A DNA stretch of 64,000 bases from Candidatus Hydrogenedentota bacterium (GTDB lineage Bacteria > Hydrogenedentota > Hydrogenedentia > Hydrogenedentales > SLHB01): contig BTWA01000007.1 of assembly GCA_045863295.1 (NCBI GenBank), positions 77,889 to 141,888 on the forward strand, given 5' to 3'. A program made the translations under genes and the position numbers. The notes below the pieces were generated by a model, which saw only the letters and a program-made list of their open reading frames with translations, was not told where the DNA came from and made no database searches. Positions 20,465 to 42,943 of the stretch are shown piece by piece; position 1 is the first letter of the stretch; the number at the start of each line of letters is the position of its first letter.

Positions 20465-20726
20465 CATCGAAACCGGACAAAATGGAGAATTACTCACGCA
20501 ACGCCGCAAAGAACTTGAAAGTTCCGGATCTAAGTAGGCAAGAAGGAATCGCTGCTGAAATCAGGTACGTTTAAGCCCGAGCAACAACGGAAAATCCACG
20601 AAGTTCCAACTGAAAATCACTTTGCGTCTTCGCGACTTTGCGTGAAATCAAAATCGTGTCCTGGAAGTTTAGTTCTCATTGTGCGCGCAAAAGGGACTAT
20701 ACTTACTACCTATGGGCGTTCCAACG

Positions 20727-21851
20727 ATGACGTTTCTGCGCCGAAATTCGACTCAATTTCTTTGCGGCCTCTGCGTTTTCGCCCTCGTGCCCGATTCAAT
20801 TCCTGCGCAGGAATGGCCCACGCTGCCCGATGCAAACGCCGCCATCGTGGTGCCCGCCCAGGAATGGGCCTTCGAACCCGCCCCTCGCACGGTCAACGCC
20901 TACCTCCATTACCCCAACGGTTCGATCGCCAACGTCGACGCCAACACCGGCCTTATGCTCAGCCTGCACAACTGGGGCGGCACCCACGCCACCGGCGCGC
21001 CAGACCCCGATACGCTCGCCGATCGCTATAATGTCATTGCCATCTGCGTCGACTACCTGCAGAGCGGCAAATGGAATCCCGAAACAAATCACCCCTACGA
21101 CTTCGGTTACCTGCAGGCCCTCGACGCGCTCCGATCCCTCTATGCCGTCTGGTCCCAACTCGACGCGCGCGAGATCGCGTTCGACAAGGCTCGCATCTAC
21201 GCCGCGGGCGGCTCCGGCGGCGGCAACGTCGCCCTCATGGCCAACAAACTCGCCCCCCGCACCTTCGCCGCCATCGTAAACCTTAGCGGCATGGTGCGCC
21301 TCACCGACGACATCGCCTTCGGACTCGAAGGCGGAAGCGATCTCAACGCCGGATACAGCAACGATCCGAAAAGCCCACGCTTTTTATCGAAGGACGATCA
21401 GGAATTGCGCTTCATCGGAAATCCCGATCATCTCGTGAAACAGGTGTCCCTGGGAAACAAACCCAAAGTGATCGTGGTCCACGGCGCAAACGACGATACA
21501 TGCCCCACCGCGGACACGCGCCAAATGGTGGATACCATGATCGCCGCCGGAATGGACGTCGACGCCCACATCGTCGAAGAGAGTGATATAGACGGCGAAA
21601 TCTTCACCGACACAAAACACTCCCTCGGCGACCGGACAAAAATCGTCCTGCATCTGGCCGGCAAATACCTGCAGCCCGATTCCCCCGAAGCCGCCCGCCG
21701 CTCCATCCCCGCCGACTTCGATCGCAAAGACCGCGCCGTCCGCTACCCAACCCCCCGCGGCGTTTTCATCATCTCCTACGAAAACGGCTACCCCCAAGGC
21801 CGCTTCGAACGGAATGATCGCGATCCCTCCGATCAAGTCGTATTTCCCTGA
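20727..21851 (+). CDS. Secreted alpha/beta-hydrolase (esterase/peptidase-like, GGSGG nucleophile elbow)
   Basis: Internal ATG 20727 gives signal peptide MTFLRRNSTQFLCGLCVFALVPDSIPAQE. It has an AAGGSGGGNVALMA serine motif and downstream VIVVHGANDDTCP and His-containing segments, consistent with a Ser/Asp/His triad. Confidence 0.55.
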   Translation: MTFLRRNSTQFLCGLCVFALVPDSIPAQEWPTLPDANAAIVVPAQEWAFEPAPRTVNAYLHYPNGSIANVDANTGLMLSLHNWGGTHATGAPDPDTLADRYNVIAICVDYLQSGKWNPETNHPYDFGYLQALDALRSLYAVWSQLDAREIAFDKARIYAAGGSGGGNVALMANKLAPRTFAAIVNLSGMVRLTDDIAFGLEGGSDLNAGYSNDPKSPRFLSKDDQELRFIGNPDHLVKQVSLGNKPKVIVVHGANDDTCPTADTRQMVDTMIAAGMDVDAHIVEESDIDGEIFTDTKHSLGDRTKIVLHLAGKYLQPDSPEAARRSIPADFDRKDRAVRYPTPRGVFIISYENGYPQGRFERNDRDPSDQVVFP

Positions 21852-22014: not shown

Positions 22015-22080
22015 TCATTCATTTGGCCGCGTCCACATCCCCATCGGATCCGGCCCGTCGCCCGTCTTGCCATGCACCGA
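22015..22080 (-). pseudogene. Relic 3'-terminal fragment (about 20 codons) homologous to the 3' end of the GHL-YVTN gene at 26628..28715
   Basis: The minus strand encodes ...VHGKTGDGPDPMGMWTRPNE* against ...KVLKTGDGPDPMSMWFPPRP* at the end of the intact gene. The nucleotide match includes an identical 23-mer, aagacgggcgacgggccggatcc. An in-frame TAG lies immediately upstream, so only the tail is present. Confidence 0.45.
22018..22075. repeat. Left copy of a roughly 55-60-bp imperfect direct repeat (ttggc..ccacat...ggatccggcccgtcgcccgtcttg...gcacc)
   Basis: Compared by eye with 26640..26695: the 24-nt core ggatccggcccgtcgcccgtcttg is identical and the flanks are about 75% identical. Confidence 0.6.
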
Positions 22081-22145
22081 AAGTCTCTACATAGTTGGCG
22101 CAAAAGCTGCTTTTTTTTCAGTTGCGGACTGACGCCTTTTGAACT

Positions 22146-22529
22146 ATGCTAACGCTGCTGTCCCTGTACTCCAATACTCAAGTTGTCGGCATAAGGGCAT
22201 TAATAATGCGTATTGCTGAGCAAAGCCAAGTGAGTCGAGTATGCATTCATTCAGCATTATTATGCTTTATCGCCGCAAATTGCGCTGCTGAGTCCAAACA
22301 CCCGGACGGGTACGTTTTCTACGCCGAAACCTTCGATTTCGGACATGTCGCCGCCGAAACTACCGCAGTGCACATGGAGCCTGCGACTCGCGCCAAGCTC
22401 ATCATTCAAGTTCCCTGGGATCCCAATCACGCTTCGCGTGTGTACAAATCTACGATTGAGGTAACGGCGCTCATCGATGGAAAGACGGAGCGAACCCAAT
22501 TGGAAGCATACGGACTGTACAACGATTAA
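22146..22529 (+). CDS. Hypothetical small secreted protein (low-GC region)
   Basis: 127-aa ORF with an internal hydrophobic N-region (VCIHSALLCFIAANCAAES). No recognisable domain. Local GC is about 40-47% against about 60% elsewhere. Confidence 0.45.
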   Translation: MLTLLSLYSNTQVVGIRALIMRIAEQSQVSRVCIHSALLCFIAANCAAESKHPDGYVFYAETFDFGHVAAETTAVHMEPATRAKLIIQVPWDPNHASRVYKSTIEVTALIDGKTERTQLEAYGLYND

Positions 22530-22603
22530 AAACGCTGGCATACGTCGCCGAACAGGCAAAAGTCGGTTTATCGTCAGCGTAACAACGATCGCAAGAGGTA
22601 TCC

Positions 22604-23620
22604 GTGATGATTCGGACAATCGCTTGGCCAATGATAGCAACCTTGACCGTACTGGCAGCCTCAGGGCAGGAACTCATTACCGGCCCGGCATCGGATCCGC
22701 CCGAAGAATTGCTGGTGCTCGCCCGGGAGTCTAAGGCGATCTACGACAGTATTACGTCATTTAGGGCACACGTCACTAAAGTAACTCGCACTGGGGGAGC
22801 GTCGGCACAAAGCCCAACGCAACCGGTAAACGAAAGAATCGATCGGGTCGAGGCGGAAATGGGCTTCAAGGATGGCTGGTACAGACTCATCCGCAACTGG
22901 ACCACCGAGACCAAGAACCCGGATACGACATCATTTCAAAAGATCACGGTTCTGCTGACGGATTCGTTCTTCTTCCAGTCGTTGGAAGGAAACGAGCAGC
23001 ATCCCGTCAAGACGAGCAGGCAATACTTCGAATTGGCTTCAAAAGATGCACTCGCGCCGAATCAGGATATGTACATCAAGCAGATGTGGAAGCCCGACCC
23101 TAGAATTTTTGGTTACACGATAGGCGACGGAACATTACTTATTGATTACATTGAAAAGATGTCGGATTATCCGGGAGCGGTGTGGTCCCTTCGAAAGTCG
23201 GAAGGAGTCTATTACGCTACAATCCACTTTGATGGTGATGTCCAGAACGGCAGACATCGATCATCCTTCGAAATAGACGCCGAGCGAGACTTCTTTATTC
23301 AGAAAGCAGAGTCGACCAATCGCGAAGGCGTAGTTGGAAGTAGTAGAACCATAGAGCCCCAACAGGTCGATGGTCTCTGGTTTGTCAGCCTTGTTCAAAG
23401 CAAGCTTGTTGATTTGGAGTCAGAAGTAACCTATACGAATGTCGAAATAAACCCAGAGTTTGACGTGGACTATTTCACTCTCAGAAGCTTTGCATTCAAG
23501 GAATCGGATACGATGAACTCGTATTCCCAGGATCGAAGCAGAAAGACGGAAATGGTCTATTGGGGTGGCAAATGGATATCAATCGACCAGTTACGGGAGA
23601 ACAGTATTCCAAAGAAGTGA
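22604..23620 (+). CDS. Hypothetical secreted protein (low-GC region)
   Basis: 338 aa with signal peptide MMIRTIAWPMIATLTVLAASGQE. No recognisable domain. The composition and codon usage are consistent with a real CDS. Confidence 0.55.
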   Translation: MMIRTIAWPMIATLTVLAASGQELITGPASDPPEELLVLARESKAIYDSITSFRAHVTKVTRTGGASAQSPTQPVNERIDRVEAEMGFKDGWYRLIRNWTTETKNPDTTSFQKITVLLTDSFFFQSLEGNEQHPVKTSRQYFELASKDALAPNQDMYIKQMWKPDPRIFGYTIGDGTLLIDYIEKMSDYPGAVWSLRKSEGVYYATIHFDGDVQNGRHRSSFEIDAERDFFIQKAESTNREGVVGSSRTIEPQQVDGLWFVSLVQSKLVDLESEVTYTNVEINPEFDVDYFTLRSFAFKESDTMNSYSQDRSRKTEMVYWGGKWISIDQLRENSIPKK

Positions 23621-23638
23621 CCCATCAGTTCTTGGCTG

Positions 23639-23672
23639 CAACTCCGGATTGAACAACACCCAACCGGAGTTG
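23639..23672 (+). terminator. Stem-loop (9-bp perfect stem caactccgg/ccggagttg, 16-nt loop) followed by a second short hairpin ccccactatgtgggg
   Basis: Inverted repeats read directly from the sequence, 19 nt after the stop of 22604..23620. There is no U-tract, so intrinsic-terminator function is uncertain. Confidence 0.3.
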
Positions 23673-23697
23673 TGGCCCCACTATGTGGGGTACCGCG

Positions 23698-26631
23698 ATG
23701 AAACGTCGATTTGCGCTCGTCTTGCTGTTGCTCAGCGTCACATTCGGTGCGGCTGTATTCTTCTTCGCCAATGGCCGGTCGAATGACAGCAATCGGCCAA
23801 TCCGCCCCGAAAAAGTGGAAGAGGCCAATTATTCCTTTGTCGAAACCGGCCCGGCACCCGAGCCGGAGCACATCGCGCGCGCGGCGATCCGCGCGGAGGG
23901 CGACGCGATACTCAGAGGCCGCGTTCTCGCGTTGGACGGCCAACCCGTTCCGAACGCCGCCATCCGGATCGTGGCGAAGACAACCACATGGAATCACGAA
24001 GGCGGCAGGGTCGGTGAAGAGACACGTCTGCAATCCGATCCCACAGGAGCGTTTGATGCATCACCGCTTCCATTCGGCCACTACCTCGTAATAGCAAGTC
24101 ACGAAGAAGGCTACGCATCCGAGGCGGTCCGCCTGACACGGCGCATCTCGCAAGAGGATGTGCTACTTGTGCTCCATCCGGGAGAGACCATCGCCGGACT
24201 TGTGCGTTCGACAGATGGAACCGCCATCGGCGGCGCGGAGGTGTTCCCCGTGGCATTCAATGGAACGCTTGTCCCGCGCGCCAAAATGGCTGCGTCCATG
24301 GTAACCACGGATTCTGACGGCCGCTTTGCGATGGGCGGATTGGCCGCGGGCCGTTGGATTCTGGTGGCAAAAGCCAAAGACTACGCGCCTGCGGAATCCG
24401 CGGAACAGGTGACCGGATCGGATTCCTGCGAGATCATTCTGGACGCGGGCGCACCGGTTCGCGGAACGGCCATCGACACCGTCACGAACCTGCCCATACC
24501 CAATCTCGTGGTTTCAGCCCTGCCAATCGGTACTCACATACCCAAGGAAACCATCAGCACGGACGATAACGGTCAATTCATGTTCGACCATCTGCCTCAG
24601 GTGAGCTGCGAAATCGGCGTGGACGATGAAAGCTATCTCCTTCTTGAAGGATTGCCGTTGGTGATGCCCGCCGAACCGGCACCGGACATCACGCTACGGC
24701 TCACCAAGGGCGGCGAAGTACGCGGACGCGTGTATGAGGTGGCGTCCGGAGAAGGCGTGAGCGAGGTTCGAATCAGCGCGGAGATCCGGTCGGCGATCGG
24801 CACTTTCCAATTCCAGACTCAGCAGCGCAAGCCGGGCGAACCGGAGATCCCGCTCCGCACTCCATCGACCCTCCCGGACGGCACGTTTTCCATTACTGGC
24901 CTCGCGCCGGGCATGTACCACATTAGCGCGAGTTCGTTTGTGCCCGGCTTCGGGTCAACCCGGCAACGCGATATGGAAACAGACGTGCAACTCAATCCCG
25001 GCGATGTAATTGAAGGGATAGAATTTGCTATAGACCGGGGCATCGTGATGAGCGGACTTGTAGTGGACGTGGATGGGAAGCCGGTGCCCGGATCACGGGT
25101 CAATTGCTGGTATCTCGAAAAAGTGTCCAGGCGGAGCCAGGTTGCCAATGCCGATAACGCCGGCCGGTTCGTGTTTACAGAGATGCGTCCCGATCACGAA
25201 GTAACGGTGTGGGCCGAAGCCGGATCGACAGAAAGCGAAAAAATCGGCCCGCTGATGATCCCGGCCGGTGGACTCCATGAAGTGAAGATCGTAATGACGG
25301 CTACAAAAGATGCAAAGATCAGCGGTACCGTCGTCAATCAGCAAGGCAAACCAGTCGAAGTAACGGTAACAGGCCTCGAACAGACTGAACTGCCAAACCC
25401 AAAGCGGTTCACCACTCAATCCGCATCGGATGGCCGTTTCCTGGTCCCTAACGTGTCTGCGGGAGTGTACGACGTCTCGCTGAACGCGGGCAGGAACGAA
25501 AAACGTCCCGCAGGCGAGGTCACCGTCAATCCAGGCCAGTTTGTACGGGACGTCAGGCTCGTTTTTGAAGAGCAGCCTCTCTATACCATCGAAGGGCATG
25601 TCTCGGACGAAAGCGGCAATCCCCTTGAAGCCTATGTTTCCTATAACCGGGTTGTAGAGAGTACGGCAACGAATCTGGGCGGCGTTCGTTCAGGATCGGA
25701 CGGCTCTTTTCGGATTGAGGGCTTGGAGCAAGGCGCCTATTCCATACACGCGGACTGCGCCGGGTTTGCGTCAGAAGCCACCATGGTAAACGCGGGTGAT
25801 TCAGGAATTCAGATTGTGTTGCGACCGCTAACCGGCACGCTCGCGGGCCGTGTTGTGGATGTGCAAGGCCACGCGGTTCCCGCATTCCGGATTGCTCTCT
25901 TTCGCGATAGTGATTATCGCGGGGTATCCAGCGCGCCCAAAAACATCGTCGATCAGGCTGGGTCATTCGAAATGCAAGTGCGTGAAGGCACATACCGCAT
26001 AGAAGTGCAGGCAGACGGTTATCTTGCAGAGGAAAAAGACGCGGTCGAGGTGGCAACGGGGCAACGCTCGACCGCCACCTTCACCTTGCGGCCGGGAGAT
26101 GCGGAAGTGCGCGGAACGATCGTGGATGCGGCGGGTCAACCCGTGGTATCGGCAAAGATCTTCACGCAGAGACAGCAGGAAAACGGCGAACTGGGCACGA
26201 GTTCCGCCGCGGCCCGATCCGATGCGGAAGGCAGATTCACCCTCCACGCCGTTCCAGACAAACCGCTTGCGATCTCGGCCACGCATCCCAGCGCCGGATC
26301 CGGTTCCGCGATGGTGACGCCAAGATCGAACGCTCCGCAGTCGGTGACCATCGCGTTAGCCGCATTGGGAAAAGTGACAGGGGCTATTCGTGTCCAGGGA
26401 AACCCGCTCACCGGCGGCACAGTCCTGTTGTGCCGGGGCGGCATTGCGTTGTCCTCGGAGTACACCAAGGCCGGTGGCTTATACGAATTCGATCAGGTGG
26501 AAGCAGGCAGATACGACATTGTGGCCTACCCAGGCTTCATAAGCCAAAGTTATCAAGACGCCCCCGCGCCACTCTCTAGAACAGCCGAAATCGTGGACGG
26601 CGCTGTTACCGTAGTCGATTTTGATTTCTAG
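23698..26631 (+). CDS. Large membrane-anchored/secreted protein composed of about 10-12 tandem carboxypeptidase-regulatory-like (CarboxypepD_reg, transthyretin-like beta-sandwich) domains
   Basis: Start MKRRFALVLLLLSVTFGAAVFFFA (signal anchor). A unit of about 80-90 aa recurs, opening with [LIV]xGxVxDxxGxPVxxAx[IV] (LRGRVLALDGQPVPNAAIRIV; IAGLVRSTDGTAIGGAEVF; VRGRVYEVASGEGVSEVRI; MSGLVVDVDGKPVPGSRVN; ISGTVVNQQGKPVEVTVTG; IEGHVSDESGNPLEAYVSY; LAGRVVDVQGHAVPAFRIALF; VRGTIVDAAGQPVVSAKIF; VTGAIRVQGNPLTGGTVLL). Confidence 0.7.
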   Translation: MKRRFALVLLLLSVTFGAAVFFFANGRSNDSNRPIRPEKVEEANYSFVETGPAPEPEHIARAAIRAEGDAILRGRVLALDGQPVPNAAIRIVAKTTTWNHEGGRVGEETRLQSDPTGAFDASPLPFGHYLVIASHEEGYASEAVRLTRRISQEDVLLVLHPGETIAGLVRSTDGTAIGGAEVFPVAFNGTLVPRAKMAASMVTTDSDGRFAMGGLAAGRWILVAKAKDYAPAESAEQVTGSDSCEIILDAGAPVRGTAIDTVTNLPIPNLVVSALPIGTHIPKETISTDDNGQFMFDHLPQVSCEIGVDDESYLLLEGLPLVMPAEPAPDITLRLTKGGEVRGRVYEVASGEGVSEVRISAEIRSAIGTFQFQTQQRKPGEPEIPLRTPSTLPDGTFSITGLAPGMYHISASSFVPGFGSTRQRDMETDVQLNPGDVIEGIEFAIDRGIVMSGLVVDVDGKPVPGSRVNCWYLEKVSRRSQVANADNAGRFVFTEMRPDHEVTVWAEAGSTESEKIGPLMIPAGGLHEVKIVMTATKDAKISGTVVNQQGKPVEVTVTGLEQTELPNPKRFTTQSASDGRFLVPNVSAGVYDVSLNAGRNEKRPAGEVTVNPGQFVRDVRLVFEEQPLYTIEGHVSDESGNPLEAYVSYNRVVESTATNLGGVRSGSDGSFRIEGLEQGAYSIHADCAGFASEATMVNAGDSGIQIVLRPLTGTLAGRVVDVQGHAVPAFRIALFRDSDYRGVSSAPKNIVDQAGSFEMQVREGTYRIEVQADGYLAEEKDAVEVATGQRSTATFTLRPGDAEVRGTIVDAAGQPVVSAKIFTQRQQENGELGTSSAAARSDAEGRFTLHAVPDKPLAISATHPSAGSGSAMVTPRSNAPQSVTIALAALGKVTGAIRVQGNPLTGGTVLLCRGGIALSSEYTKAGGLYEFDQVEAGRYDIVAYPGFISQSYQDAPAPLSRTAEIVDGAVTVVDFDF

Positions 26632-28715
26632 GGTCTTGGCGGAAACCACATGCTCATGGGATCCGGCCCGTCGCCCGTCTTGAGCACCTTTTCCACTTCC
26701 AGTTTTCCCATGTCAATCACATGCAGACCGTCGAGATGTTCGCAACCCACAAATGCCCGTTTCTCATCCGGGGTCAACTCGACTCCAATGGCAAACGGCC
26801 CCACGGCGATGCGTTTCAGCTCCGTGCGGGTCGTCACATCAATGACAATGAGTTCGCCTTTCTCCGTCCAGCTCGGCACGAGCGCCTTCGTTCCGTCTTT
26901 CGTGAACTTGATACGCACGGGCATGCCGGGACAGGGAAAGGTCTCAATGGGCTCATGCGTGGCGAGATCGATGATCGTGATCGAACCACCGGATTGATTC
27001 GCGGCCCACAAGTGTTTTCCATCCGGCGTAAACGCCATGCCTTCGACGCCCTTGCCGCAGGGGATTTGCTTCATCAATTCTCCGGATTTCCGGTCGATTA
27101 CTGACACCGTCTGCGATTCGATATTGGCGGTATACAATCGCTCGTTGTCCGGCGACACGAGCACCATATGCGATATCTTGCCGTGCGTGGGAATGGCTCG
27201 CGTCACCTCGTGTGTGGCCGTATCCACCTCCACGACGAAACCGGTCTGTCCGGCGGTGAAGTAAGCATGCTTTCCGTCGGGCGCCATGGTGGCCCCGTGG
27301 ATGCGCGTGTACTCGCCGGTCTTGATCTGTTTGATGTGTTTTCGCTGCGTCAAATCGACGACCGAAATTGTATCCCCCGGCGCTTCGTAGTTGGAGAGAT
27401 ACATGAACCGCTGATCCGGCGTGATGCACATCTCATGGGGATTCGGTCCGGTCGAAATCACGTCCAGCACGGCAAGCGTATGGGGATCGATAAACGTGAC
27501 GGTATCGTCATGCTTGTTCGCCACGGTGAAGATCGGCCCTTCGGGCCACACGGCCACCCCGCGCAAGGTCTCCGCCGAAGCAATCTCTTTCAAGACCGCA
27601 AACGGCGGCTCTTCACCACGTTCGCGCGTGGTGAAGAAATTGAACACTTGAATGCCGTCCGCGCCGACCTGCCACAATCGCCGCGCCATCTCGCGATACA
27701 TCTCCGGTTCCCGTGCAACTTCAATGGACGCATACAAAGGGAATTCCTGGGGCAACGCTTTCCGGTACGCCTTGAGGGGCAAGGGAAAATCATTCCGCAA
27801 GTAGTGCGAAACAATCACCATATCCAGCAGTCCGTTCTTCGCCCACGACACCGGATCGATTCCAATGGCCGTGTTCTGTTCCGGTTTGGCCATGATCCGC
27901 GCGCACAACAAAATTGGCCGTCCCCGCTGGTCTCCGATCTCCTTGGTCATGGCGCGAATCTCACTCATCCAAGCCGTCATCGTGGGGATGTGCTGTTGTT
28001 CCTCGCCGGGCTTGAAGTACATGGGAAACCGCTGGAAATCGAGATCAAGGCCGTCGAGGTCGTAGCGCTCGCAACATTCGCGAAGCATGGCCAAGGTGTA
28101 CGCCCGCACCTCGGGTATCGCAAAGTTCAACCCCGCCGGAAGCCACGTAGCCACGATCGGGTGCGTGTCCGGACCCAGAATCTCGTGATACACCGGCGGC
28201 AAGGGATCGCTGTGTTTGCCGATGCGCCACTCCGGATGGTCTTTCCAGAATCGCGAGAGAATGACGTGGTCTTCATATTCAACGGCATGAACCTCGTTCA
28301 AGCGAAACGATATGAACGCCTCCATGCCGCGCTCTTTCGCGCGCGATAGGATAAGCGCGATCGGATCATGACCGGCCGAAATCAGCCCGCGCAGATTGAG
28401 GATCCCGCGCTCGGTCGTCTTCTCGGCCGCGTCCGGCGTAATCCGCGCCGCAATCGCGGGGTTCACGTGCTCGCCGATAAAGTCGCCCACCTTCGTGGGA
28501 TAGTTCAGCGTCATCCCGATGTTGGGGCTCATCAGGAACGTGGTAACCTCCGTATCCGCGACTTCATCCACATGCCGGTACACATCCTCCGGCGTCATCG
28601 GCGGCTGCTTGTAAATAAACATGTTGTCGCCGTCGCTGTTGTACAAAATCCGGTGCGGTCCCGCGTGTGCAGCAACAACAACGAACAAGAAACCGGCAAA
28701 AAATCTACACGTCAT
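26628..28715 (-). CDS. Secreted fusion protein: N-terminal glycoside-hydrolase-like TIM-barrel domain (GHL/DUF4015-type, tentative) + C-terminal YVTN-family beta-propeller repeats
   Basis: Signal peptide MTCRFFAGFLFVVVAAHAGP. The N-terminal half (LYNSDGDNMF...DLDGLDLDFQRFPMYF) resembles uncharacterised GH-like TIM barrels. The C-terminal half has about 6 repeats of the YVTN propeller pattern (GPNPHEMCITPDQRFMYLSN...ISVVD; ATMAPDGKHAYFT...VVEVD; MVLVSPDNERLYTAN...VSVID; GMAFTPDGKHLWAAN...ITIID). Its stop overlaps the stop of the convergent gene 23698..26631 in the tetranucleotide CTAG. Confidence 0.65.
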   Translation of the reverse strand: MTCRFFAGFLFVVVAAHAGPHRILYNSDGDNMFIYKQPPMTPEDVYRHVDEVADTEVTTFLMSPNIGMTLNYPTKVGDFIGEHVNPAIAARITPDAAEKTTERGILNLRGLISAGHDPIALILSRAKERGMEAFISFRLNEVHAVEYEDHVILSRFWKDHPEWRIGKHSDPLPPVYHEILGPDTHPIVATWLPAGLNFAIPEVRAYTLAMLRECCERYDLDGLDLDFQRFPMYFKPGEEQQHIPTMTAWMSEIRAMTKEIGDQRGRPILLCARIMAKPEQNTAIGIDPVSWAKNGLLDMVIVSHYLRNDFPLPLKAYRKALPQEFPLYASIEVAREPEMYREMARRLWQVGADGIQVFNFFTTRERGEEPPFAVLKEIASAETLRGVAVWPEGPIFTVANKHDDTVTFIDPHTLAVLDVISTGPNPHEMCITPDQRFMYLSNYEAPGDTISVVDLTQRKHIKQIKTGEYTRIHGATMAPDGKHAYFTAGQTGFVVEVDTATHEVTRAIPTHGKISHMVLVSPDNERLYTANIESQTVSVIDRKSGELMKQIPCGKGVEGMAFTPDGKHLWAANQSGGSITIIDLATHEPIETFPCPGMPVRIKFTKDGTKALVPSWTEKGELIVIDVTTRTELKRIAVGPFAIGVELTPDEKRAFVGCEHLDGLHVIDMGKLEVEKVLKTGDGPDPMSMWFPPRP
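26640..26695. repeat. Right copy of the roughly 55-60-bp imperfect direct repeat, lying inside the 3' end of the GHL-YVTN gene
   Basis: See 22018..22075. This copy encodes the true C-terminus ...KTGDGPDPMSMWFPPRP*. Confidence 0.6.
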
Positions 28716-29093: not shown

Positions 29094-30506
29094 CTACGCC
29101 AGCACGCCCTGTACAACCTTTCCGTGTACGTCCGTAAGCCGGTATAGGCGTCCCTGAAATTTGTACGTGAGCCGCTCGTGATCGATGCCAAGCAAGTGCA
29201 ACAGCGTGGCATGGAAATCGTGCACGTGCACGCCGTTCTCCGCCACGTTGTAGCCGAACTCGTCCGTCTGGCCGTACGACAGGCCCGGTTTCACGCCGCC
29301 GCCCGCCATCCACACCGTAAAGCAGCGGGGATGATGATCGCGCCCGTAGTTGCCGTCGCTGAGTTTGCCCTGCGAGTAGTTGGTGCGCCCAAATTCGCCG
29401 CCCCAGATGACCAGGGTCTCGTCCAGCATGCCGCGCCGTTTCAAGTCCATGATCAGGGCCGCGCAGGCCTGGTCCGTCTCTTTGCATTTTACTGGGAGAT
29501 TCTTCGGCACGTCGCCGTGATGGTCCCAGTCCCGGTGGTACAGTTGAATGAATTTCACGCCCCGCTCGGCCAATCGCCGGGCCAACAGGCAGTTCGACGC
29601 GAAAGAACCGGGATCGCGCGAATCCGGCCCGTATTCCTCAAAGATCGAATGCGGTTCGTCGGACATGTCGGTCACATCCGGCACGGAGGTTTGCATGCGG
29701 TAGGCCATTTCATACTGCGCAATGCGGGATTCCAATCCCGTGTGCCCGGTTTGTGCCAGTTGCCATTCGTGCAACTCCTTGAGCCGGTCCAGCAACATGC
29801 GGCGGCTTTCGCCCGTCACGCCGTCCGGGTTGGTCAGGTAAAGCACCGGATCGGCCCCGGCCCGGAATTGCACGCCCTGGTGGGTTGATGCAAGGAATCC
29901 GCTGCCCCAAAGCCGCGAATACAGCGGCTGGCCGCCCTTGGCCTTGGTCAACATCACCACGAAGGAAGGAAGATTCTCGTTTTCGGATCCCAGGCCGTAA
30001 GACAACCAGGACCCGATGCACGGCCGGCCCGAAAGTTGGGATCCGGTCTGCAGAAACGTAATCGCGGGATCGTGATTAATCGCCTCCGTGTACATGGAAC
30101 GAATCACGCACAACTCATCCGCCACCTGCGCCGTGTAGGGAAGCTGATCGCTGATCCACTGCCCGCTTTGGCCATGTTGCTTGAACTGGAATACCGACCC
30201 CGCGAGCGGCAGGGACGACTGGTTCGCCGACATGCCCGTGAGCCGCTGGCCCTGCCGCACGGAGTCCGGCAACTGCTGCCCATTGAGCTCGTTCAGCAGC
30301 GGTTTGTAATCGAACAAGTCCATCTGCGAGGGACCGCCGCTCTGAAAGAGATAGATCACCCGCTTCGCCTTCGGCGCGTAATGGGGGAGATCCAATGCCA
30401 TACCGGGTGCAACGCTCGCACCGGCCCCGGAGGGATTGAGTAGATTGGCCAAAGCCATGCCGCCAAGGCCCATGCCGAACCGGTTCAAAAAACGCCGACG
30501 GCTCAT
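29094..30506 (-). CDS. DUF1501 domain protein (sulfatase/alkaline-phosphatase-like fold) with Tat signal
   Basis: The N-terminus MSRRRFLNRFGMGLGGMALANLLNPSGAGA has a twin-arginine motif. The rest fits the conserved DUF1501 layout, including the ...DHHGD... and C-terminal GGGVKPG-type motifs. The internal Met at 30506 is preferred over track 30554. Confidence 0.85.
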   Translation of the reverse strand: MSRRRFLNRFGMGLGGMALANLLNPSGAGASVAPGMALDLPHYAPKAKRVIYLFQSGGPSQMDLFDYKPLLNELNGQQLPDSVRQGQRLTGMSANQSSLPLAGSVFQFKQHGQSGQWISDQLPYTAQVADELCVIRSMYTEAINHDPAITFLQTGSQLSGRPCIGSWLSYGLGSENENLPSFVVMLTKAKGGQPLYSRLWGSGFLASTHQGVQFRAGADPVLYLTNPDGVTGESRRMLLDRLKELHEWQLAQTGHTGLESRIAQYEMAYRMQTSVPDVTDMSDEPHSIFEEYGPDSRDPGSFASNCLLARRLAERGVKFIQLYHRDWDHHGDVPKNLPVKCKETDQACAALIMDLKRRGMLDETLVIWGGEFGRTNYSQGKLSDGNYGRDHHPRCFTVWMAGGGVKPGLSYGQTDEFGYNVAENGVHVHDFHATLLHLLGIDHERLTYKFQGRLYRLTDVHGKVVQGVLA

Positions 30507-30564
30507 GCCGTCCAGGGGCTCCGGACCGGTGCAAACGGGGCAATGTCTATCCATGAAACCAACC

Positions 30565-33500
30565 TCAATACTTGGTTTGAAATGCGTCCACGTTCATGAT
30601 CAATTGGGCCACGGCGGTGGCGGCTGCATACTGCGCGGGATCAAAATCCTCCCGCCGCGGTCTTTCGCCCACATCCGTGTAGGCAATGGCTTCTTCGGCA
30701 TGTGCGGTGTAATACGCAACTTGCTCGTCGTATGCCTGCTGTAAAATTGCCGCTTCTTCCGGCGAAGGGCTTTGGCTCGTTAATGCGCGGTACATGTGCG
30801 TAAGGCGCGCTTCCACATCGGAATGCGCATCCATCGCCTTTTCGGCCAATACCCGCGAAGCTTCAATATACTGCGGATCGTTCAACAGGATCAGGGATTG
30901 AAGCGGAGTCGCCGTGACTTCGCGCCGCACCGTGCACACTTCCCGGTTCGGCGCGTCGAACGTGGCCAACGTGACCGGATGCACCGTGCGCTTCCAGTAC
31001 GTGTACATGCTTTTCCGATAGAGACCGTCGCCCGAGTCGGGCACATAGGTAAGGCCGCTGGCGTCAATCCAGAGATCCGTGGGCTGATACGGCTTCACAC
31101 TGGGTCCCCCCACGGTCGTCACCAGCAGGCTGCTGGCAGCAAGTGCATTATCCCGTATCAGTTCCGCGGAAAGCCGCTGCCGCGGTCCACGTGCGAGCAA
31201 AACGTTGTGCGGATCGCGGTCGGTCAGGTCCGGGCGCGGAGTCGAGTCCTGGCGGTACGTCGCGGACATGACAATCAACTTGAGCAGTTGTTTGGTATCC
31301 CAGCTGGAGTCCCGGTATTCCTTGGCCAGCCAGTCCAGCAAATCCGGATGGGAAGGCGCGCGGCCCTGGGTGCCGAAATCCTCCTGGGTTTCCACCAGTC
31401 CACGGCCAAAAACCATCAGCCAATACCGGTTGACGGCCACGCGCGCCGTCAACGGGTGGTCAGGCTCGAAAAGCCATTGGGCCAATCCCAGGCGGTTTGC
31501 AGGACGCTCGCCGAACGGCATAATGCTCTCCGGCGTGGACGGTTGCACCGGATCGGTCGGGTGATCGTACGCGCCGCGAGCCAGCACGTACGCCTGTCGC
31601 GGTTCCGGCATGTCTCGCATCACCATAATTTCAGGAACCCCGCCAATAAACGTATTCTCGATTTCCCTGGCGACCTGCAATGCCGTTGTGGCATCGCGAT
31701 ACGCCGGATCGACCGCAAGAAGGTAATACGCAAAGAGCGAATCCTCGGCGGCAGGATCCGTCCCGGTGCAACGTTCCGCGATAATAGTAGGGAGATCGTG
31801 TTGGCCGGCTATGGATTCCACTTCCAGCGACGAAATCTCGCGATCGAAAACCATGAATTCATCGAGAAGGCCGTTCGTGAATCCGTTGTCGCGAAAGCGT
31901 TGCCCAAGATGGAGGGCAGGGGAGTCTTTAGGGTCGGCGTACATGATTGTTTTGTACAGATTGTCGCGAATCACCTCTGTTTCAAGGAGTGTGCCGTTCA
32001 TGAACAGGCGGATGCCGGAAGCCTTGCTGGAGCCGTCGTAGGTCACGGCCACATGTGTCCAGGCGTCGATGGGAATCGCTTCCTTCGCGGTCACCCGCAC
32101 GGCATTGCCCGGCCAAAAGTGATTCAACGCAAACTCAGGCCGGCCCTGATTCAGCAGAAGCTCGTAGCCGCGGCTGGCGGCATCGAGAGACGCCTTGGAC
32201 GCATGGCACACCACCATGCGATCCGTATGGCCCGGAATTCGGATCCACGATGCAATGGAAAACGGTTGGCACCGTTCGAACTTGCCCTGCTCGGCGAGTT
32301 TCACCGCGTCTTCGCCGCTAAATAACGCGGCGTGGCCCACTTTGCCCTCCGTTGCGGTCACGCCGGAGTCGACGTCCGCGGGTTTGTCCGCCGTGCTCGT
32401 ATTGGGCGTCTTGCCATCGGAAATTTCGTCGAACGGTAAGTGTGCGATAGGCGCCAGCGGCGGCGCGTTTCGATCGGGACTGTTTCGCCACGCAACGAAG
32501 CGCTCGCGAGCCGGTTCGATGGCCTGTGCGCGTTCGGCAACCTTGGCCTGTATCGATTCCATGTGCCGGACGTGTTCCGCGCGTGATTCCTCGGTCGTCA
32601 GGAACATCCCGGGCGACGGAGTTGCATTGGTGAAGTGGGAGTACATCCCCGATTCGTCCAGATTGTTGAAAAACGAGAACAGGCTGTAGTAATCGCGTTG
32701 CGAGATGGGGTCGAACTTGTGGTCGTGACAGCGTGCGCAATCCATCGTCAGACCGAGGAACGCGGTCGAGAAAGTATTCGCGCGATCCGCAACATAGGCC
32801 ACGCGGAATTCTTCAGGGATACTGCCGCCTTCGTTGGTTTGACGATGTAGGCGGTTGAATGTCGTGGCAAGGACCTGATCCTGGCTTGGATTGGGCAGGA
32901 GATCGCCTGCAAGCTGCCACGTTACAAATTGGTCGTAGGGCATGTTTTCAGTGAATGCCCTGATGACCCAGTCCCGCCAGGGCCATACAAACATTTCGAC
33001 ATCCGCCTGATAGCCATAGGTATCGCCATACCGCGCAAGATCGAGCCACTCATTGGTCATGCGCTCGCCGTACGCCGGCGACTCCAAAAGCCGATCGACC
33101 AGCCGCTCATAAGCGCCTGGCGCTTCGTCGGCAAGAAACGCGTCAATCTCTTCAAGCGATGGCGGCAACCCGGTAAGGTCCATGGAGACTCGGCGGATGA
33201 GGATTTCTTTGTTCGCTTGGGGTGAGGGTGTCAATCCCTCGGCCTGCAAACGCTCAAGGATAAACAGATCGACAGGAGTCTTCGCCCAACCTGCGCTGTC
33301 TCGAATATCCGGCAGTGGGGTGTCCGCCAACGGAATGAACGCCCAGTGTGGTTTGTATTCGGCGCCCTCCCGGACCCATCGAACCAGTTTCTCAATCTGG
33401 GTCGAATCCAGTACGCGCTTGGAATCGGGCGGCGGCATTTTCTCAGATGGATCTCCGCTCGTGATACGCTTGACCAGTTCGCTTGCATCCGAGTTTCCAG

Positions 33501-33723
33501 GCACGACCGCGCCCTTGCTCTTGGCCTCCTCGGCGACGTCCAGCCGGAGTCCGGCCTTGCGCTGGTTGGCGTCCCGGCCGTGGCAATGAAAACAGTTGTC
33601 CGCCAGGATCGGCCGGATATCGCGATTGAAGTCCAGCGGTTTCGTTTGGCCGTATGCGGCTGTGGCAAAGCCGGCAAATGCAGCCCAGAAGGAATAGAAC
33701 AAAACAGCCCGATACATAAACAC
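30565..33723 (-). CDS. Planctomycete-type cytochrome c domain protein (PSCyt1/PSCyt2/PSD1; DUF1549/DUF1553) with concanavalin/LamG-like insert
   Basis: Signal peptide, then a heme-binding CxxCH (DNCFHCHG) near the N-terminus. DUF1549-like ([21 protein letters not shown]) and DUF1553-like (C-terminal) regions are present in 1052 aa. The gene sits immediately upstream of the DUF1501 gene, the canonical pairing. Confidence 0.85.
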
Positions 33724-34891: not shown

Positions 34892-35096
34892 GGCGAGATC
34901 TCCCCCTGAACGAAGTAGAAGCAATCCTGGGCAGCCTGGACCCCCATCCGGCCGCCCTGGATCCCGTGGCTTGAGTATACCCCAATATACCGATCGGGCG
35001 ACATCAAGTTTGGCTTAAGCTCATTACTGCAATTGCCGGGACCGATTCAGACGAGAGTTGCTTCTTGGCCGCCATACCGGCGGCACAAGAGAAGTA

Positions 35097-35762
35097 TCAA
35101 GACCGTTTTCGGAACAGCCTGGGGTTGCGTCGTATGAATGCCCGGATTCCGTCTCCAATAAACGAGTATCGCCCCGACTTGAAATAAGCCATACCCATGG
35201 CTGCCACGACAGCGGCGCCTGCTATGTCCACCATTAGGTCCTGCATGGTATCGTCTATGCCTGTCTCCACGCTTTGCATATTGGTGCCTGGGAGGGCTCG
35301 ATCGACGATATATTCAAAGATCTCCCAGATTACCCCCATAAAGACGGCGAACGTCACGCCAAAAAAGCAGACAAACGTGGGATGAATGCCTTTGGGTAGA
35401 CGCGATGTTTGGTTCAGCAGATACAAGGTGATAAAGCCCACCATTCCAAACAAGAATCCGGATCCGGCGTGCAGGGCAAGATCCCACCACCAGAATTTGT
35501 AATAGAAATCACCGGCCGATCCCAGAAAGAAAGACAGGAAGATGAATGCAGCCGATATCAACTGGAACTCAGGCGGCAGATAGATGCGATACCGCTTAAG
35601 CACCGCGGGCACCACGGTCAATGCAATCACGAGCAGCGTTAGAAATACATTCTCCCAGTCTTGCCGTACGACAAAAACAACCAGGCCAATTGCCATCGTT
35701 GTCTGAATCACAATGGTCAACTTGAGGTAAAGACTTTGGGAATCCGATTCGTCCTCGGGCAT
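35097..35762 (-). CDS. Hypothetical integral membrane protein (5-6 TM helices)
   Basis: Hydrophobic segments run throughout the 221 aa. No catalytic motif was recognised. Confidence 0.5.
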   Translation of the reverse strand: MPEDESDSQSLYLKLTIVIQTTMAIGLVVFVVRQDWENVFLTLLVIALTVVPAVLKRYRIYLPPEFQLISAAFIFLSFFLGSAGDFYYKFWWWDLALHAGSGFLFGMVGFITLYLLNQTSRLPKGIHPTFVCFFGVTFAVFMGVIWEIFEYIVDRALPGTNMQSVETGIDDTMQDLMVDIAGAAVVAAMGMAYFKSGRYSFIGDGIRAFIRRNPRLFRKRS

Positions 35763-35807
35763 ATGGCACTCTATGCAACTCTACGGCCTCGTTATCCGGG
35801 GTCTTCG

Positions 35808-37556
35808 TCAAGGCCGCTTTTGAATCTCTTCCACAATTCTTAACCGCAACGCTTCCAATATCATTCCTTTTTCTGGCAGGGGTTGAGTTTGCGCCGGGTT
35901 TTCAAGCCATGTGCTCCAAGTGGGTACTGCCTCCCGGATTATTTTGTCCACGGCCTCTCTTCCACCGCGCTGTTCGAGGATGGTGAGGTATTCGTAGTCT
36001 TCCATGCCGTCCCGGAAATTCTTGAGGCGAATGGATGCGATGGGCCCGTCGATGCCTATCTCTTTTCCGGGGTAGAAGAGAAAGCCTTCTCCATTCCATC
36101 GGACGCGGAATCCGGGATCGTGCCATGGATTGCGGTCCGGGCTTCCCCAATAGACAGATGACCAATAGAGGAAGCCAGTAATGTTATAGCGGCGGTTTAT
36201 CCACGGTGCGATGCGGTAGACCAGAGGTGAAAAGTCGATCTGCCAATACGGCGGATCGTCTTCCTTTACCTCTTCGTAATGGGGATGGTAGCTATGTGCG
36301 CGTTGCGTCAGCGCGGTATAGCTCCAGACAGTATCGCCTTCGGCCTGCACAGCCCGGATAGAGTCTTCATCGATGAATCCGAGCAGGGGACACCAGATGT
36401 CGATGGCTTCATTCAAAGTGCCCCACGCTGGGTCGTGTGTGTAGGTTTGTTCTACGATAAGCCGCCGAAGGCGGGGTTCTGCCTCCTCTATCTGCGCCGC
36501 CAGTTCACGGACCTTGTCGTAATCCTCCAATGTGTTGGGTTCGTCGAACATGTAGATATACGAACGATCCACCCATCCTTTTCTTGCAAGAAATTCATGC
36601 CACGAGGTGTAGTAGTTCTTGCGCTTCACCTGGTCTTCCTCTGAATTGCCGGTGTAGGGAGCCCGGTGAATTTCGAAATTGGTGACATGAAATCGATCCA
36701 TGAATTGTGTCAGTCGAGCTTCCAAATCGGCGTCCACCGCGATCACTCCGTCGTCGCCCGGTGTTGGCATGAGTCTCCGCGGTATAGGCGGATTGATCCG
36801 ATGGTCGGCGGCCATCGCGATGAATTGATCTTCGATGGCGTAGTAGGCCTCCTCGTCGGTGTTAAGTCCCCAGTATGCGGCAACCCGTTCGAATCCGCCG
36901 AAGTGATTTTCGTGTGTAGGACCCTCCGGCAGGGAGAAACCCCACACTATCAGCGTTACCGGCACGTCGACTGGCTTTGCATTTTCCGCGGTAATCGAAA
37001 TCGAACCTTTGTACTCGCCGGATTTCGCGTTTTTTGGAACGGCGATATCAATCCATATGTTTTCGTGGTGGTCCTCCCACACGTTAAACGGGACACCGCC
37101 GAACTGCGCGCCGGATACTTTTTCCCCGTTCCATACGGGAGTCTGGATGGGTTCTCCCGTTACTGGATGGACAAAGGGGACAAGGGGATCGGGAATCCAT
37201 CCCGGCGGTTCGGTTGCGCGAGGCGAAGAGACCCGGACGGGTACGTACACTGCCCGGTACAACGTGCATTCCATGGAAGCGGGCGTGCCGCCGGCATCCA
37301 CCATTGGGTTGGCCTTTGCACTTACATTTAGAAGGCTTCCGTTCCTTGCTGTGACGACCACTAGAAACGATTCGGTCTCATTTTGCGCGGCGGCCAAAGT
37401 GGCCTCCGAGGATCCCGCAATTTCGCCGTTTGGCCTGGCTCTTTCATATGCTGGCAAGACATGCGCTTCTATGGAAGGAGAGTTGGGCTGTGCCATGGCG
37501 ATATCCCGTGTCATGATTGCACAGCCCAGGCAAAGTAGCAGCGAGCAGGGTTTCAT
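35808..37556 (-). CDS. Putative secreted glycoside-hydrolase-like protein (DUF4091-like C-terminal region)
   Basis: Internal start MKPCSLLLCLGCAIMTRDIAMAQP (signal peptide). Trp/Tyr-rich C-terminal motifs (YWQIDF, FLYWSSVYWG, FLFYPG, LKNFRDGMEDYEYL) resemble uncharacterised GH-like families. The assignment is tentative. Confidence 0.45.
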   Translation of the reverse strand: MKPCSLLLCLGCAIMTRDIAMAQPNSPSIEAHVLPAYERARPNGEIAGSSEATLAAAQNETESFLVVVTARNGSLLNVSAKANPMVDAGGTPASMECTLYRAVYVPVRVSSPRATEPPGWIPDPLVPFVHPVTGEPIQTPVWNGEKVSGAQFGGVPFNVWEDHHENIWIDIAVPKNAKSGEYKGSISITAENAKPVDVPVTLIVWGFSLPEGPTHENHFGGFERVAAYWGLNTDEEAYYAIEDQFIAMAADHRINPPIPRRLMPTPGDDGVIAVDADLEARLTQFMDRFHVTNFEIHRAPYTGNSEEDQVKRKNYYTSWHEFLARKGWVDRSYIYMFDEPNTLEDYDKVRELAAQIEEAEPRLRRLIVEQTYTHDPAWGTLNEAIDIWCPLLGFIDEDSIRAVQAEGDTVWSYTALTQRAHSYHPHYEEVKEDDPPYWQIDFSPLVYRIAPWINRRYNITGFLYWSSVYWGSPDRNPWHDPGFRVRWNGEGFLFYPGKEIGIDGPIASIRLKNFRDGMEDYEYLTILEQRGGREAVDKIIREAVPTWSTWLENPAQTQPLPEKGMILEALRLRIVEEIQKRP

Positions 37557-37630
37557 CGCGAATCCTCCCGTTATCACGCTTGGACCATCCGTGAAGTCCA
37601 TCGCGCCTTATCCATTGACTCTATACCGCA

Positions 37631-39010
37631 TTGGATAGTATTTTCATGCATCTGGCGACGATACCGTTCAGTAGAAGTGGACATCCCTTGATATCACGCA
37701 TTATATCCGCATCATCGCGTTCACCCGGGACTTTCCTTGCGTTTTTTTTCCTGATGGTATTTTCCGGTTGCCAGACAACTGTCAGCATGATGCCAACACC
37801 CAATATCTACAGGAACGGTGGAGAAAACCCGTTCGAATCGGTGCGAAGCGAATTCAGGACCAACGAAGTAGACATCATTTATGCAACCGACCGTATGCCG
37901 GATGATTTATCTGACGCGCCGCATGTTCAGTATGGCCATATGCGGAGTCCGAAGCTTGTATTTGGCCAAGCCCGGATAGGGTTTGGCGAGGATGTATCGT
38001 GGGAAAACCTGGTGGAAGAGAGCCTTTCCGGTTCGCCCCGCAAGGACATGGCTCCGCGCGTTATTGATGTCCGTGAGATAACTTCGCTTCCGGATCCGGT
38101 GGACTACTTGAATCCAGGGGTTCATGCGTTTTCGGACGACAGTGCGTTGTTGAATATCGAGCAAGCGGCCGCGTTGCGTTTGCATAGTCTGGTAAACGAC
38201 TACGTTGAGGGGAGTGAGCATCGCGAAGCTTATGTGTTTGTACACGGGTACAACGTAAACTTTGACGATTCCGTCAAGGTGATGGCAGAACTTTGGCATT
38301 TTCTGGGCAGGGACGGGGTACCGATTGCCTATACGTGGCCCGCGGGTCACGGCGGCTTGCGGGGGTATACGATTGATCGGGAATCGGGAGAGTTTACGGT
38401 CTGGCATCTGAAGAGGTTTCTAACGGCTCTTGCAGCGTGTCCCTCGCTGGACAGGATCAACATTATTGCTCATAGCCGCGGTACTGATGTTGTGATAACA
38501 GCATTGCGCGAGTTGCACCAATTTCATTTGGGTGGAAATCGCGATACTCGAAGCGTATTGAAATTGGGCAACGTGGTGCTTGCCGCGCCGGATTTGGATC
38601 TCCAGGTGGCGACGCAACGCATTATCCCGGAAGGCTTGGGGAGCGTACCCGAGCGACTGACCATATACATTTCCGAAAAAGACCGGGCGATGGAAGCCTC
38701 CAACTGGTTGTTCGGCGGTGTGGCTCGACTTGGCCGACTAACGATGGCCCTTTTATTGCCTTTGGAATCCCGCCGGTATGAGTCCATGGATACCGTCGCG
38801 GTGATCGATGCCCGTACCAAACGTGCTGATATTTATGGGCACAGTTACTTTTATCAGAGTCCCGCAGTGAGCTCCGATCTTATTTTGTTATTGCGTAAAA
38901 ACTGTGATCCAGGTATTGAGAATGGGCGCCCCCTTCGTCTTGCCGCCCCGAAGTATTGGGTTCTCGATGATTCCTATCCTTCGTTTCCGAAGGGTGAAGA
39001 CGGCCAATAG
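37631..39010 (+). CDS. Lipoprotein alpha/beta-hydrolase of the DUF900 family
   Basis: Lipobox-like FLMVFSGC. VFVHGYNVNFDDS and IIAHSRGTDV (the AHSxG serine motif characteristic of DUF900) with downstream Asp/His candidates. Confidence 0.65.
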   Translation: MDSIFMHLATIPFSRSGHPLISRIISASSRSPGTFLAFFFLMVFSGCQTTVSMMPTPNIYRNGGENPFESVRSEFRTNEVDIIYATDRMPDDLSDAPHVQYGHMRSPKLVFGQARIGFGEDVSWENLVEESLSGSPRKDMAPRVIDVREITSLPDPVDYLNPGVHAFSDDSALLNIEQAAALRLHSLVNDYVEGSEHREAYVFVHGYNVNFDDSVKVMAELWHFLGRDGVPIAYTWPAGHGGLRGYTIDRESGEFTVWHLKRFLTALAACPSLDRINIIAHSRGTDVVITALRELHQFHLGGNRDTRSVLKLGNVVLAAPDLDLQVATQRIIPEGLGSVPERLTIYISEKDRAMEASNWLFGGVARLGRLTMALLLPLESRRYESMDTVAVIDARTKRADIYGHSYFYQSPAVSSDLILLLRKNCDPGIENGRPLRLAAPKYWVLDDSYPSFPKGEDGQ

Positions 39011-39185
39011 CACTATCTGAAGGTATTGTTCTGATTAGATTTACGCAATTACGTACGTCGGCCTCTGGGAGGCCACTGCATCTGAAGTCCGATTGCTGTT
39101 CCCGGGGGCTGTAGATTGAAGTAACTTGGAGCTTCTGCTAAAGTCCCGGAACCATAAAACCTATCAATACAAACTTGAGAAGCTC

Positions 39186-39773: not shown

Positions 39774-39848
39774 CTGCAGGTCCAGTGCAAACTTAGAATT
39801 GATTGTGTTCTGTTTGAAACACGATATTCGCGAAAGGTAGCGACGATT

Positions 39849-41750: not shown

Positions 41751-41775
41751 CGTATAGACGTCAGGATGAGTGTGC

Positions 41776-42912: not shown

Positions 42913-42943
42913 GACACAGTTCACCGTTGTACGAAGCGTTTAG

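Follow-up and report, generated by a model that had tools for sequence, protein, structure and literature searches.

A lineage-restricted three-gene envelope module with a LolA-like protein and a ten-domain CarboxypepD_reg protein at an apparent insertion site in a Hydrogenedentota genome

The locus and its three genes

A stretch of 64,000 nt of contig BTWA01000007.1 from a Candidatus Hydrogenedentota bacterium (assembly GCA_045863295.1, positions 77,889 to 141,888; this whole stretch is referred to here as the window) contains three consecutive plus-strand genes that encode a small secreted protein of 107 or 127 amino acids (aa), a second secreted protein of 338 aa, and a 982-aa protein made up almost wholly of beta-sandwich domains. 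Together these constitute an undescribed three-gene cell-envelope module that is built from known folds and whose function we infer. The Hydrogenedentota are to our knowledge uncultured; literature searches returned nothing on their envelope, no paper combining a LolA-like protein with a carboxypeptidase regulatory-like domain, and none describing this gene combination.

The three open reading frames (ORFs) given in the initial annotation are all present on the plus strand, with the coordinates shown in Table 1. The first is open from 22146 to 22529 (127 aa), whereas the deposited annotation starts the gene at the ATG at 22206, giving 107 aa, and the later start yields the more convincing predicted signal peptide (MRIAEQSQVSRVCIHSALLCFIAANCA/AE). 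The 127-aa and 338-aa ORFs are exactly identical to AMXMBFR84_15090 and AMXMBFR84_15100, respectively, of the metagenome-assembled genome (MAG) AMXMBFR84. Both the 107-aa and the 338-aa proteins begin with hydrophobic segments that resemble signal peptides as read from the sequence. The genes are separated by gaps of 74 nt and then 62 nt, and two hairpins reported between the second and third genes were found again, a strong one (z = -4.8) and a weak one. No run of T residues comes after either of them and a terminator scan made no call, so that an intrinsic terminator was rejected here. An Rfam search gave nothing relevant, and a promoter scan of the region gave 3 sites against 5.0 expected.

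A ten-domain protein with an N-terminal anchor

The 982-aa protein had been estimated to contain about 10–12 transthyretin-like (CarboxypepD_reg) repeats, and the number is exactly ten. The Pfam model CarboxypepD_reg (PF13620) matches it at 264.1 bits (cut-off 32.3) in 10 stretches, and a self-trained hidden Markov model (HMM) delimits the same number of domains, at residues 76–155, 169–253, 258–326, 345–441, 455–523, 545–622, 635–714, 719–803, 808–893 and 897–963. Pairwise identity among the ten is 19–45%, and no tandem repeats were found in the DNA of the gene. Ahead of the array the sequence shows a strongly hydrophobic segment at about residues 10–29 (Kyte-Doolittle mean 2.58 in a 19-residue window, residues 10–28) in which no cleavage site is evident; a flexible linker of some 45 aa (about residues 30–75) connects it to the first domain, and anchor and linker are kept in 6 array orthologues. 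The orthologues are collinear with the 982-aa protein at 28–33% identity, and two of them have ten domains and a third has eight. The best partner of a domain lies at the same position for 8 of 10 domains in locus L005, 8 of 8 in L007 and 6 of 8 in L012. Because the domains of the window protein pair best with orthologue domains at the same position, the array appears to be old and its length conserved. NOMO (nodal modulator), a eukaryotic protein of the endoplasmic reticulum lumen, is a membrane-anchored rod of about 12 transthyretin/immunoglobulin (Ig)-like domains, and from what is known of it a conserved domain number and order fits a role as spacer or scaffold. The array also has weak Pfam matches to the NOMO_3rd, NOMO_5th and EMC7 beta-sandwich models.

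The initial annotation compared the array to surface stalks and adhesins. On this interpretation the signal peptide is cleaved and the array exported as a surface stalk, an adhesin or an S-layer-like system, with the small proteins as chaperones or binding partners. Arrays of prealbumin-like domains are typical of adhesin stalks, and the array shows weak Pfam matches to SdrD_B, SpaA and Big_1 and weak NCBIfam matches to S-layer proteins; moreover, a rod of ten domains could exceed the width of the periplasm. However, there are several objections. First, there is no outer-membrane translocator domain, C-terminal sorting signal or secretion-system gene in or beside the module. Second, the hydrophobic segment of 19–20 residues has no Ala-X-Ala-type site and is kept as an anchor in all orthologues. 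Third, the S-layer scores are far under threshold (Kustd1514-type, 52 bits against a cut-off of 1400; SlaB-type, 15 bits against 700, E = 0.0075), and S-layer membership was rejected. Finally, the number and order of the domains are conserved, unlike adhesin repeats, which vary rapidly. A surface system appears unlikely to us, and the N-terminal anchor argues instead for a periplasmic stalk tethered to the inner membrane.

A LolA-type fold predicted for the 338-aa protein

Both small proteins had been described as orphans with signal peptides and no recognizable domain. The signal-like segments are there, and neither protein has a direct match in Pfam or NCBIfam, but a LolA fold was found for one and an Ig-like fold for the other, and the word orphan does not apply: the 338-aa protein has 15 distant relatives, and the DUF1573-family proteins of the related clusters end in a domain that the 107-aa protein matches. 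In word-indexed searches the 338-aa protein, the 127-aa protein and the alignment of the family found almost nothing but themselves. The relatives were found by exhaustive HMMER searching among 1.84 billion cluster representatives, with E values from 4e-42 to 4e-4; most are 324–404 aa long and two are shorter (242 and 203 aa), probably through truncated gene calls. The family appears from this search to be rare. In every full-length member a hydrophobic leader at the N-terminus precedes a conserved helix, and neither of the two alignments examined (A1 and A2) contains a conserved stretch of 7–10 residues. Seven of the 16 family members match the LolA_like or TP_0789-like family of Pfam (PF17131) at E <= 1 (best 5.5e-7); by these comparisons the 338-aa protein would represent a divergent sister group of PF17131, and we do not call it a member.

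A single sequence was useless as input for AlphaFold2 (predicted local distance difference test score, pLDDT, of 32), and the 16-sequence alignment gave a model of the 338-aa protein with pLDDT 87.2 and a predicted template modeling score of 0.83. The model has an open antiparallel beta half-barrel (the criterion being 11–13 strands) with helices closing its groove, and the top 25 Foldseek matches are all of LolA/LolB type, with E values down to 2.6e-8, although identity to the solved structures is only 10–14%. At the level of fold, then, the modeled 338-aa protein is placed in the LolA/LolB superfamily. This half-barrel is the fold of periplasmic carriers for the acyl chains of lipoproteins and for other hydrophobic ligands. 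Sequence matches in the PDB to an anti-CRISPR protein (E = 0.6) and the extracellular domain of FtsX (E = 0.025) are at noise level and were set aside as chance.

The closest counterparts are PF17131, DUF1329 (PDB 4z48) and LolA3 of Porphyromonas gingivalis (PDB 9tp6), which the model resembles in its secreted half-barrel, N-terminal helix and short lid helices. The 338-aa protein differs in being about 100 residues longer (338 against about 240 aa) and in the position of its gene next to one for a ten-domain beta-sandwich membrane protein. LolA-like genes usually have genes for ATP-binding cassette (ABC) or resistance-nodulation-division (RND) transporters as their neighbors. LolA3 itself has no assigned function, is not paired with a LolB, and lacks the Arg signature of LolA and the Leu signature of LolB (PMC13103446).

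RseB ranks well below DUF1329, LolA3, LolA and LolB among the matches. This bears on the idea that the 338-aa protein belongs to an RseB/MucB-like envelope-stress sensor, in which it would bind the periplasmic part of the anchored protein and regulate proteolysis or signaling. In favor of the idea, a single-pass membrane protein is encoded immediately downstream; yet with about 9 residues ahead of its anchor there is no cytoplasmic anti-sigma or signaling domain, and neither the window nor most of the related loci have a gene for an extracytoplasmic function (ECF) sigma factor beside the module. We regard a stress sensor as extremely improbable.

A one-domain Ig-like protein

The 107-aa protein is related to DUF1573-family proteins of about 300 aa that are encoded in the clusters of other loci. 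BLASTP gives E values of 2e-8 (L001), 3e-4 (L002) and 2e-5 (L005), and phmmer matches are reciprocal, with E values of 2e-7 to 1e-3 in both directions. The region matched is the C-terminal domain (residues ~250–312) of the longer proteins, with which the 107-aa protein has a C-terminal motif YK[SA]..V......E.YGLY in common. In the longer proteins the Pfam DUF1573 domain is N-terminal and the C-terminal domain is a weak match to ASH, which is Ig-like. The 107-aa protein does not match the DUF1573 HMM (PF07610) at E <= 1, and the similarities suggest that it is a one-domain version of the cluster DUF1573-family proteins and not a DUF1573 member. Lipobox-like motifs are present in the DUF1573-type proteins of two loci, IVAC in L002 and ISSC in L007. 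A literature search found no functional paper on DUF1573.

Conservation of the module

A LolA-like gene is paired with a downstream array gene in 7 of the 8 independent loci whose downstream sequence is readable (the window counted), with the LolA-like relatives sharing 17–30% identity with the window protein (arrangements in Table 1). The fragments on three short contigs (L004, L010 and L027) are compatible with the same layout. The LolA-like and stalk genes form a conserved pair, usually joined by a DUF1573-type protein, which bears out the proposal that the three genes form a linked and undescribed unit; rather than unrelated neighborhoods and a trio that is conserved nowhere else, one finds the pair recurring in other loci. 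A long form of the module, as read from these loci, adds a small Cys-rich secreted protein and a three-domain DUF1573 protein. The Cys-rich proteins, encoded after the LolA-like gene (L001:1150–1545, L005:1251–1772, L004:1739–1996 and L002:10232–10492), have no Pfam match, are barely alignable with one another (best E = 0.02) and are absent from the window.

A second locus, with the complete long form, is present in the MAG from which the window comes (L002:9129–14105; P0004, identical to AMXMBFR84_40400), and its locus tags imply that two further LolA-like paralogues may lie just beyond the array there. On contig L013 (2–1419) two LolA-like genes are in tandem; the fragment lying upstream is identical to the C-terminal end of P0007 (AMXMBFR84_40350) and the other gene encodes P0010. 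This one MAG thus has at least four paralogues of the rare LolA-like family. All three of the relatives with an organism-named source record are from Hydrogenedentota, two of them from the window's own MAG, and on these records the module appears restricted to that lineage.

Several loci have additional or irregular features. An ABC-2-type permease gene lies ahead of the LolA-like gene in L027 (420–3668) and L003 (121–954), and genes for dynamin-like or MMR_HSR1 GTPases are found in that position in L027 and L007 (1–2018; also L008). The presence of these upstream genes in three independent loci suggests that one branch of the family has a larger module; none of the genes lies beside the trio in the window. 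The array gene at L002:11727–14105 is broken up into ORFs of 256 aa and 526+ aa, and the DUF1573-type gene at L005:2062–2907 (L005/L006) is in two pieces, reflecting in each case a frameshift or pseudogenization or an assembly error.

Two alternatives are addressed by this comparison. The first is that the three genes are chance neighbors with no functional link and that the repeat flanking them (described below) is unrelated. The gaps between the genes, the strong hairpin between the second and third, and one family member that has no array neighbor are all in keeping with it. Against this stand the pairing in seven of the eight loci that are independent and informative, with protein identity so low, and a repeat that brackets exactly these genes and has a 24-nt core not expected by chance; we give chance adjacency, already disfavored, next to no weight. 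The second is that the module helps to capture substrates for the breakdown of glycans or peptides, the array binding polymers and the LolA-like protein binding a nutrient that is hydrophobic or amphipathic, in the service of nearby hydrolases. Degradative genes are close at hand (an M81 peptidase, an S9 esterase and GHL10 in the window, a sulfatase in L002 and a GH43-like gene in L005), and CarboxypepD_reg-type domains are found in SusC-type nutrient importers, with a weak TIGR04056 match here. However, each locus has different neighboring genes and conservation is limited to the module, the adjacency to GHL10 in the window would be a result of the insertion described below, and no carbohydrate-binding module family scores above threshold in Pfam. 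We consider substrate capture quite improbable.

Base composition

The initial annotation noted an atypical composition of the small proteins. Among the 40 non-overlapping window ORFs of at least 100 aa, the two small trio genes do have the lowest guanine-plus-cytosine (GC) content (0.50 and 0.49; mean 0.558, standard deviation 0.036), but their GC at third codon positions (GC3; 0.54 and 0.57) is within range, being equalled by genes at 37.6–42.9 kb and at 50.7 kb. In all related loci the LolA-like and DUF1573-type genes are 4–16 GC points below the adjoining array gene. Gly, Ala, Val and Pro are abundant in the array proteins and not in the small ones. Because the same GC offset occurs in all of these loci, the low values of the small genes appear to be a trait of the gene families and not evidence of foreign origin. 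A recent foreign acquisition as read from GC was rejected, the offset being common to all related loci and GC3 no outlier. Elsewhere in the window, at 35000–43000, lies a block of genes with GC of 0.50–0.53 and GC3 of 0.55–0.58, as low as in the small trio genes, which includes a GH123-like gene (35808–37601).

An apparent insertion in a beta-propeller gene

The three genes had also been called a cargo, and an insertion signature brackets exactly this trio. It consists of a 47-nt direct repeat (Table 1) and has several features. First, the two copies are 85% identical; the 24 nt nearest the right-hand junction agree fully, and all 7 mismatches fall among the other 23 nt, away from the junction. 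With an even spread of mismatches the chance of this would be about 0.004, or C(23,7)/C(47,7). Second, the 24-nt core occurs twice in the window, where 0 copies are expected by chance. Third, the right copy is the end of a convergent 695-aa gene, encoding KTGDGPDPMSMWFPP followed by RP and the stop codon (the gene terminus being …KTGDGPDPMSMWFPPRP and stop), and translation of the left copy from the minus strand gives KTGDGPDPMGMWTRPNE and a stop, with the frame kept and the stop at the equivalent position. Finally, the similarity ends abruptly at the core. Flanking direct repeats and a rebuilt 3′ end of the target gene, by which islands are recognized, are thus both present. Judged from the sequence, the trio looks like a 4.6-kb block inserted within the last 18 codons of the beta-propeller gene, whose 3′ end would have been rebuilt and whose old end would survive as a relic. 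The pattern is as would be expected of recombination at a short identical core between an incoming 4.6-kb segment and the 3′ end of the gene. It resembles the duplicated att sites of integrative islands in its imperfect repeats with an identical core, the rebuilt 3′ end, the displaced old end and the sharp stop in homology; unlike such islands, the block has no integrase, excisionase or transposase, and what it carries is an envelope module specific to the lineage, of which the same genome has paralogues.

Among the scanned flanking ORFs, too, none of these enzymes was identified, there are no tRNA genes in the window, and no further copy of the 24-nt core was found elsewhere, viral contigs included. 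A mobile-element or phage origin was rejected on the lack of tRNA genes and PADLOC matches, the negligible PHROG matches and the absence of the core from viral contigs. As for the initial annotation's proposal of horizontal acquisition, a foreign origin is not supported: the low GC is uninformative, the relatives with named sources are Hydrogenedentota, and there is no mobility gene, tRNA or phage gene. Any transfer was probably within the lineage, because the source-named relatives are Hydrogenedentota and there are paralogous copies in the same MAG. The orthologues found for the 695-aa gene are only 67–70% identical and share no synteny with the window, and two scans of genome contigs found no relative. 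These orthologues, on two metagenome contigs (L018:73–2133 and L019:7176–10017), consist of two overlapping ORFs each, through a frameshift or a sequencing error.

Other features of the window

Upstream of the trio, the start of the S9/esterase gene lies within a 16-nt inverted repeat (94% complementary) whose arms, at 20503–20518 and 20753–20768, are separated by 234 nt. Downstream, a DUF1501 gene lies beside a PSCyt1/DUF1549/DUF1553/Laminin_G_3 gene on the minus strand (29094–33723), a pairing of DUF1501 and PSCyt1-type genes that is typical of Planctomycetes-like genomes. In one locus the LolA-like family member that has no array neighbor adjoins a D12-class methyltransferase and a SacI-type restriction enzyme, which form a type II restriction-modification system (L014:3310–5265).

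Table 1. Features of the trio locus in the window, and arrangement of related loci
Feature	Position	Strand	Remark
Left direct-repeat copy, two codons and stop	22015..22069 (repeat 22023–22069)	-	apparent relic 3′ end of 695-aa gene
Sigma-70-like promoter match TTGCCA-17-CATAGT	22067..22095	+	weak, consensus only; straddles repeat/insert junction
107-aa secreted single-domain Ig-like protein (predicted)	22206..22529	+	homology to C-terminal ASH-like domain of DUF1573-family proteins
338-aa secreted LolA/LolB superfamily protein, LolA_like/DUF1329/LolA3 branch (predicted)	22604..23620	+	structure model and family HMM
Intergenic hairpins	23612..23677 (weak 23612–23633, strong 23634–23677)	+	not a canonical terminator
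982-aa signal-anchored protein, ten transthyretin-like (CarboxypepD_reg) domains	23683..26631	+	Pfam and self-trained HMM
Right direct-repeat copy, final codons of intact 695-aa gene	26636..26682 (24-nt exact core 26659–26682)	-
695-aa GHL10-like/YncE-type beta-propeller gene, convergent	26628..28715	-	apparent insertion target; outside conserved module
LolA-like, Cys-rich 131 aa, DUF1573 314 aa, anchored array	L001 (P0003)		array cut by contig end
LolA-like, small Cys-rich protein, DUF1573 lipoprotein 322 aa, array	L002 (P0004)
LolA-like, Cys-rich 173 aa, DUF1573 pieces, 976-aa array	L005/L006 (P0006)
LolA-like, 205 aa, 297-aa DUF1573-type, 795-aa array	L007 (P0009)
LolA-like, then array directly	L012 (P0013)
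LolA-like, then anchored CarboxypepD_reg protein directly	L016 (P0015)		cut

Discussion

We favor, at about even odds, the interpretation that these genes are a lineage-restricted three-gene envelope module composed of an anchored ten-domain stalk, a LolA-fold carrier and an Ig-like protein. The stalk would be a fixed-length scaffold that starts at the inner membrane and reaches into the periplasm or across it. An Ig-like domain is typically 2.5–4 nm long, and the extended rod might measure a few tens of nanometers, comparable to or greater than the width of the periplasm. The LolA-fold protein may bind a partner that is lipidated or hydrophobic, most plausibly the Ig-like/DUF1573 lipoprotein of the module itself, or else a lipid, and may pass it on, either along the stalk or at the distal tip. 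The DUF1573 proteins with lipobox-like motifs in the long form are candidate cargo, and the module would on these terms be a dedicated device for envelope assembly or transport and not an adhesin. The mechanism is plausible but weak, because the short form in the window is without a clear lipoprotein.

Several observations weigh against this interpretation, of the insertion as well as of the module. First, no recombinase was found among the three ORFs between the repeats (Pfam, NCBIfam, PHROGs and PADLOC). Second, no empty site was found in relatives, and no bracketing repeats were seen around the other clusters. Third, no ABC or LolCDE-type extractor lies beside the trio in the window. Fourth, the window's 338-aa protein does not match PF17131 even at E <= 1 and falls under all Pfam thresholds. 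Fifth, the 107-aa protein has no canonical lipobox, and the proposed lipoprotein cargo may be missing from the short form of the module. Finally, the LolA-like member in L014 has no array neighbor.

Two known systems offer points of comparison. With the LolCDE-LolA-LolB pathway of Escherichia coli the module has in common a periplasmic, predicted soluble carrier and, in its long form, a lipoprotein-like DUF1573 partner. It differs from canonical LolA/LolB in that no LolCDE genes adjoin it, and from a housekeeping LolA carrier in that the window family is rare, paralogous and lineage-specific. With NOMO the 982-aa protein shares the organization of a single-pass membrane protein that is almost wholly a string of transthyretin-like beta-sandwiches; however, its anchor is N-terminal where that of NOMO is C-terminal, its host is bacterial, and there are no NCLN/TMEM147-type partners, and the likeness is at the level of domain family only and not one of orthology. 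A bolder proposal draws on both: the array would be a NOMO-like periplasmic ruler or track along which the LolA-fold carrier moves a lipoprotein or lipid, as an alternative to LolB-type delivery, with the whole mobile as a module and coupled in some loci to the ABC-2 permease and dynamin-like GTPases. We think it distinctly unlikely that all of this is correct.

The module has implications at several levels. LolA3/DUF1329 paralogues are widespread and without known function, and the conserved link to an anchored partner provides a testable hypothesis for one branch of them. The clean insertion signature with no recombinase gene would be a small case of an operon-sized module moving within a lineage. 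Were the function to prove mundane, either structural or adhesive, the comparison would still upgrade the annotation of three 'hypothetical' genes. The presence of several paralogous copies per genome may mark an envelope biology that is particular to the Hydrogenedentota.

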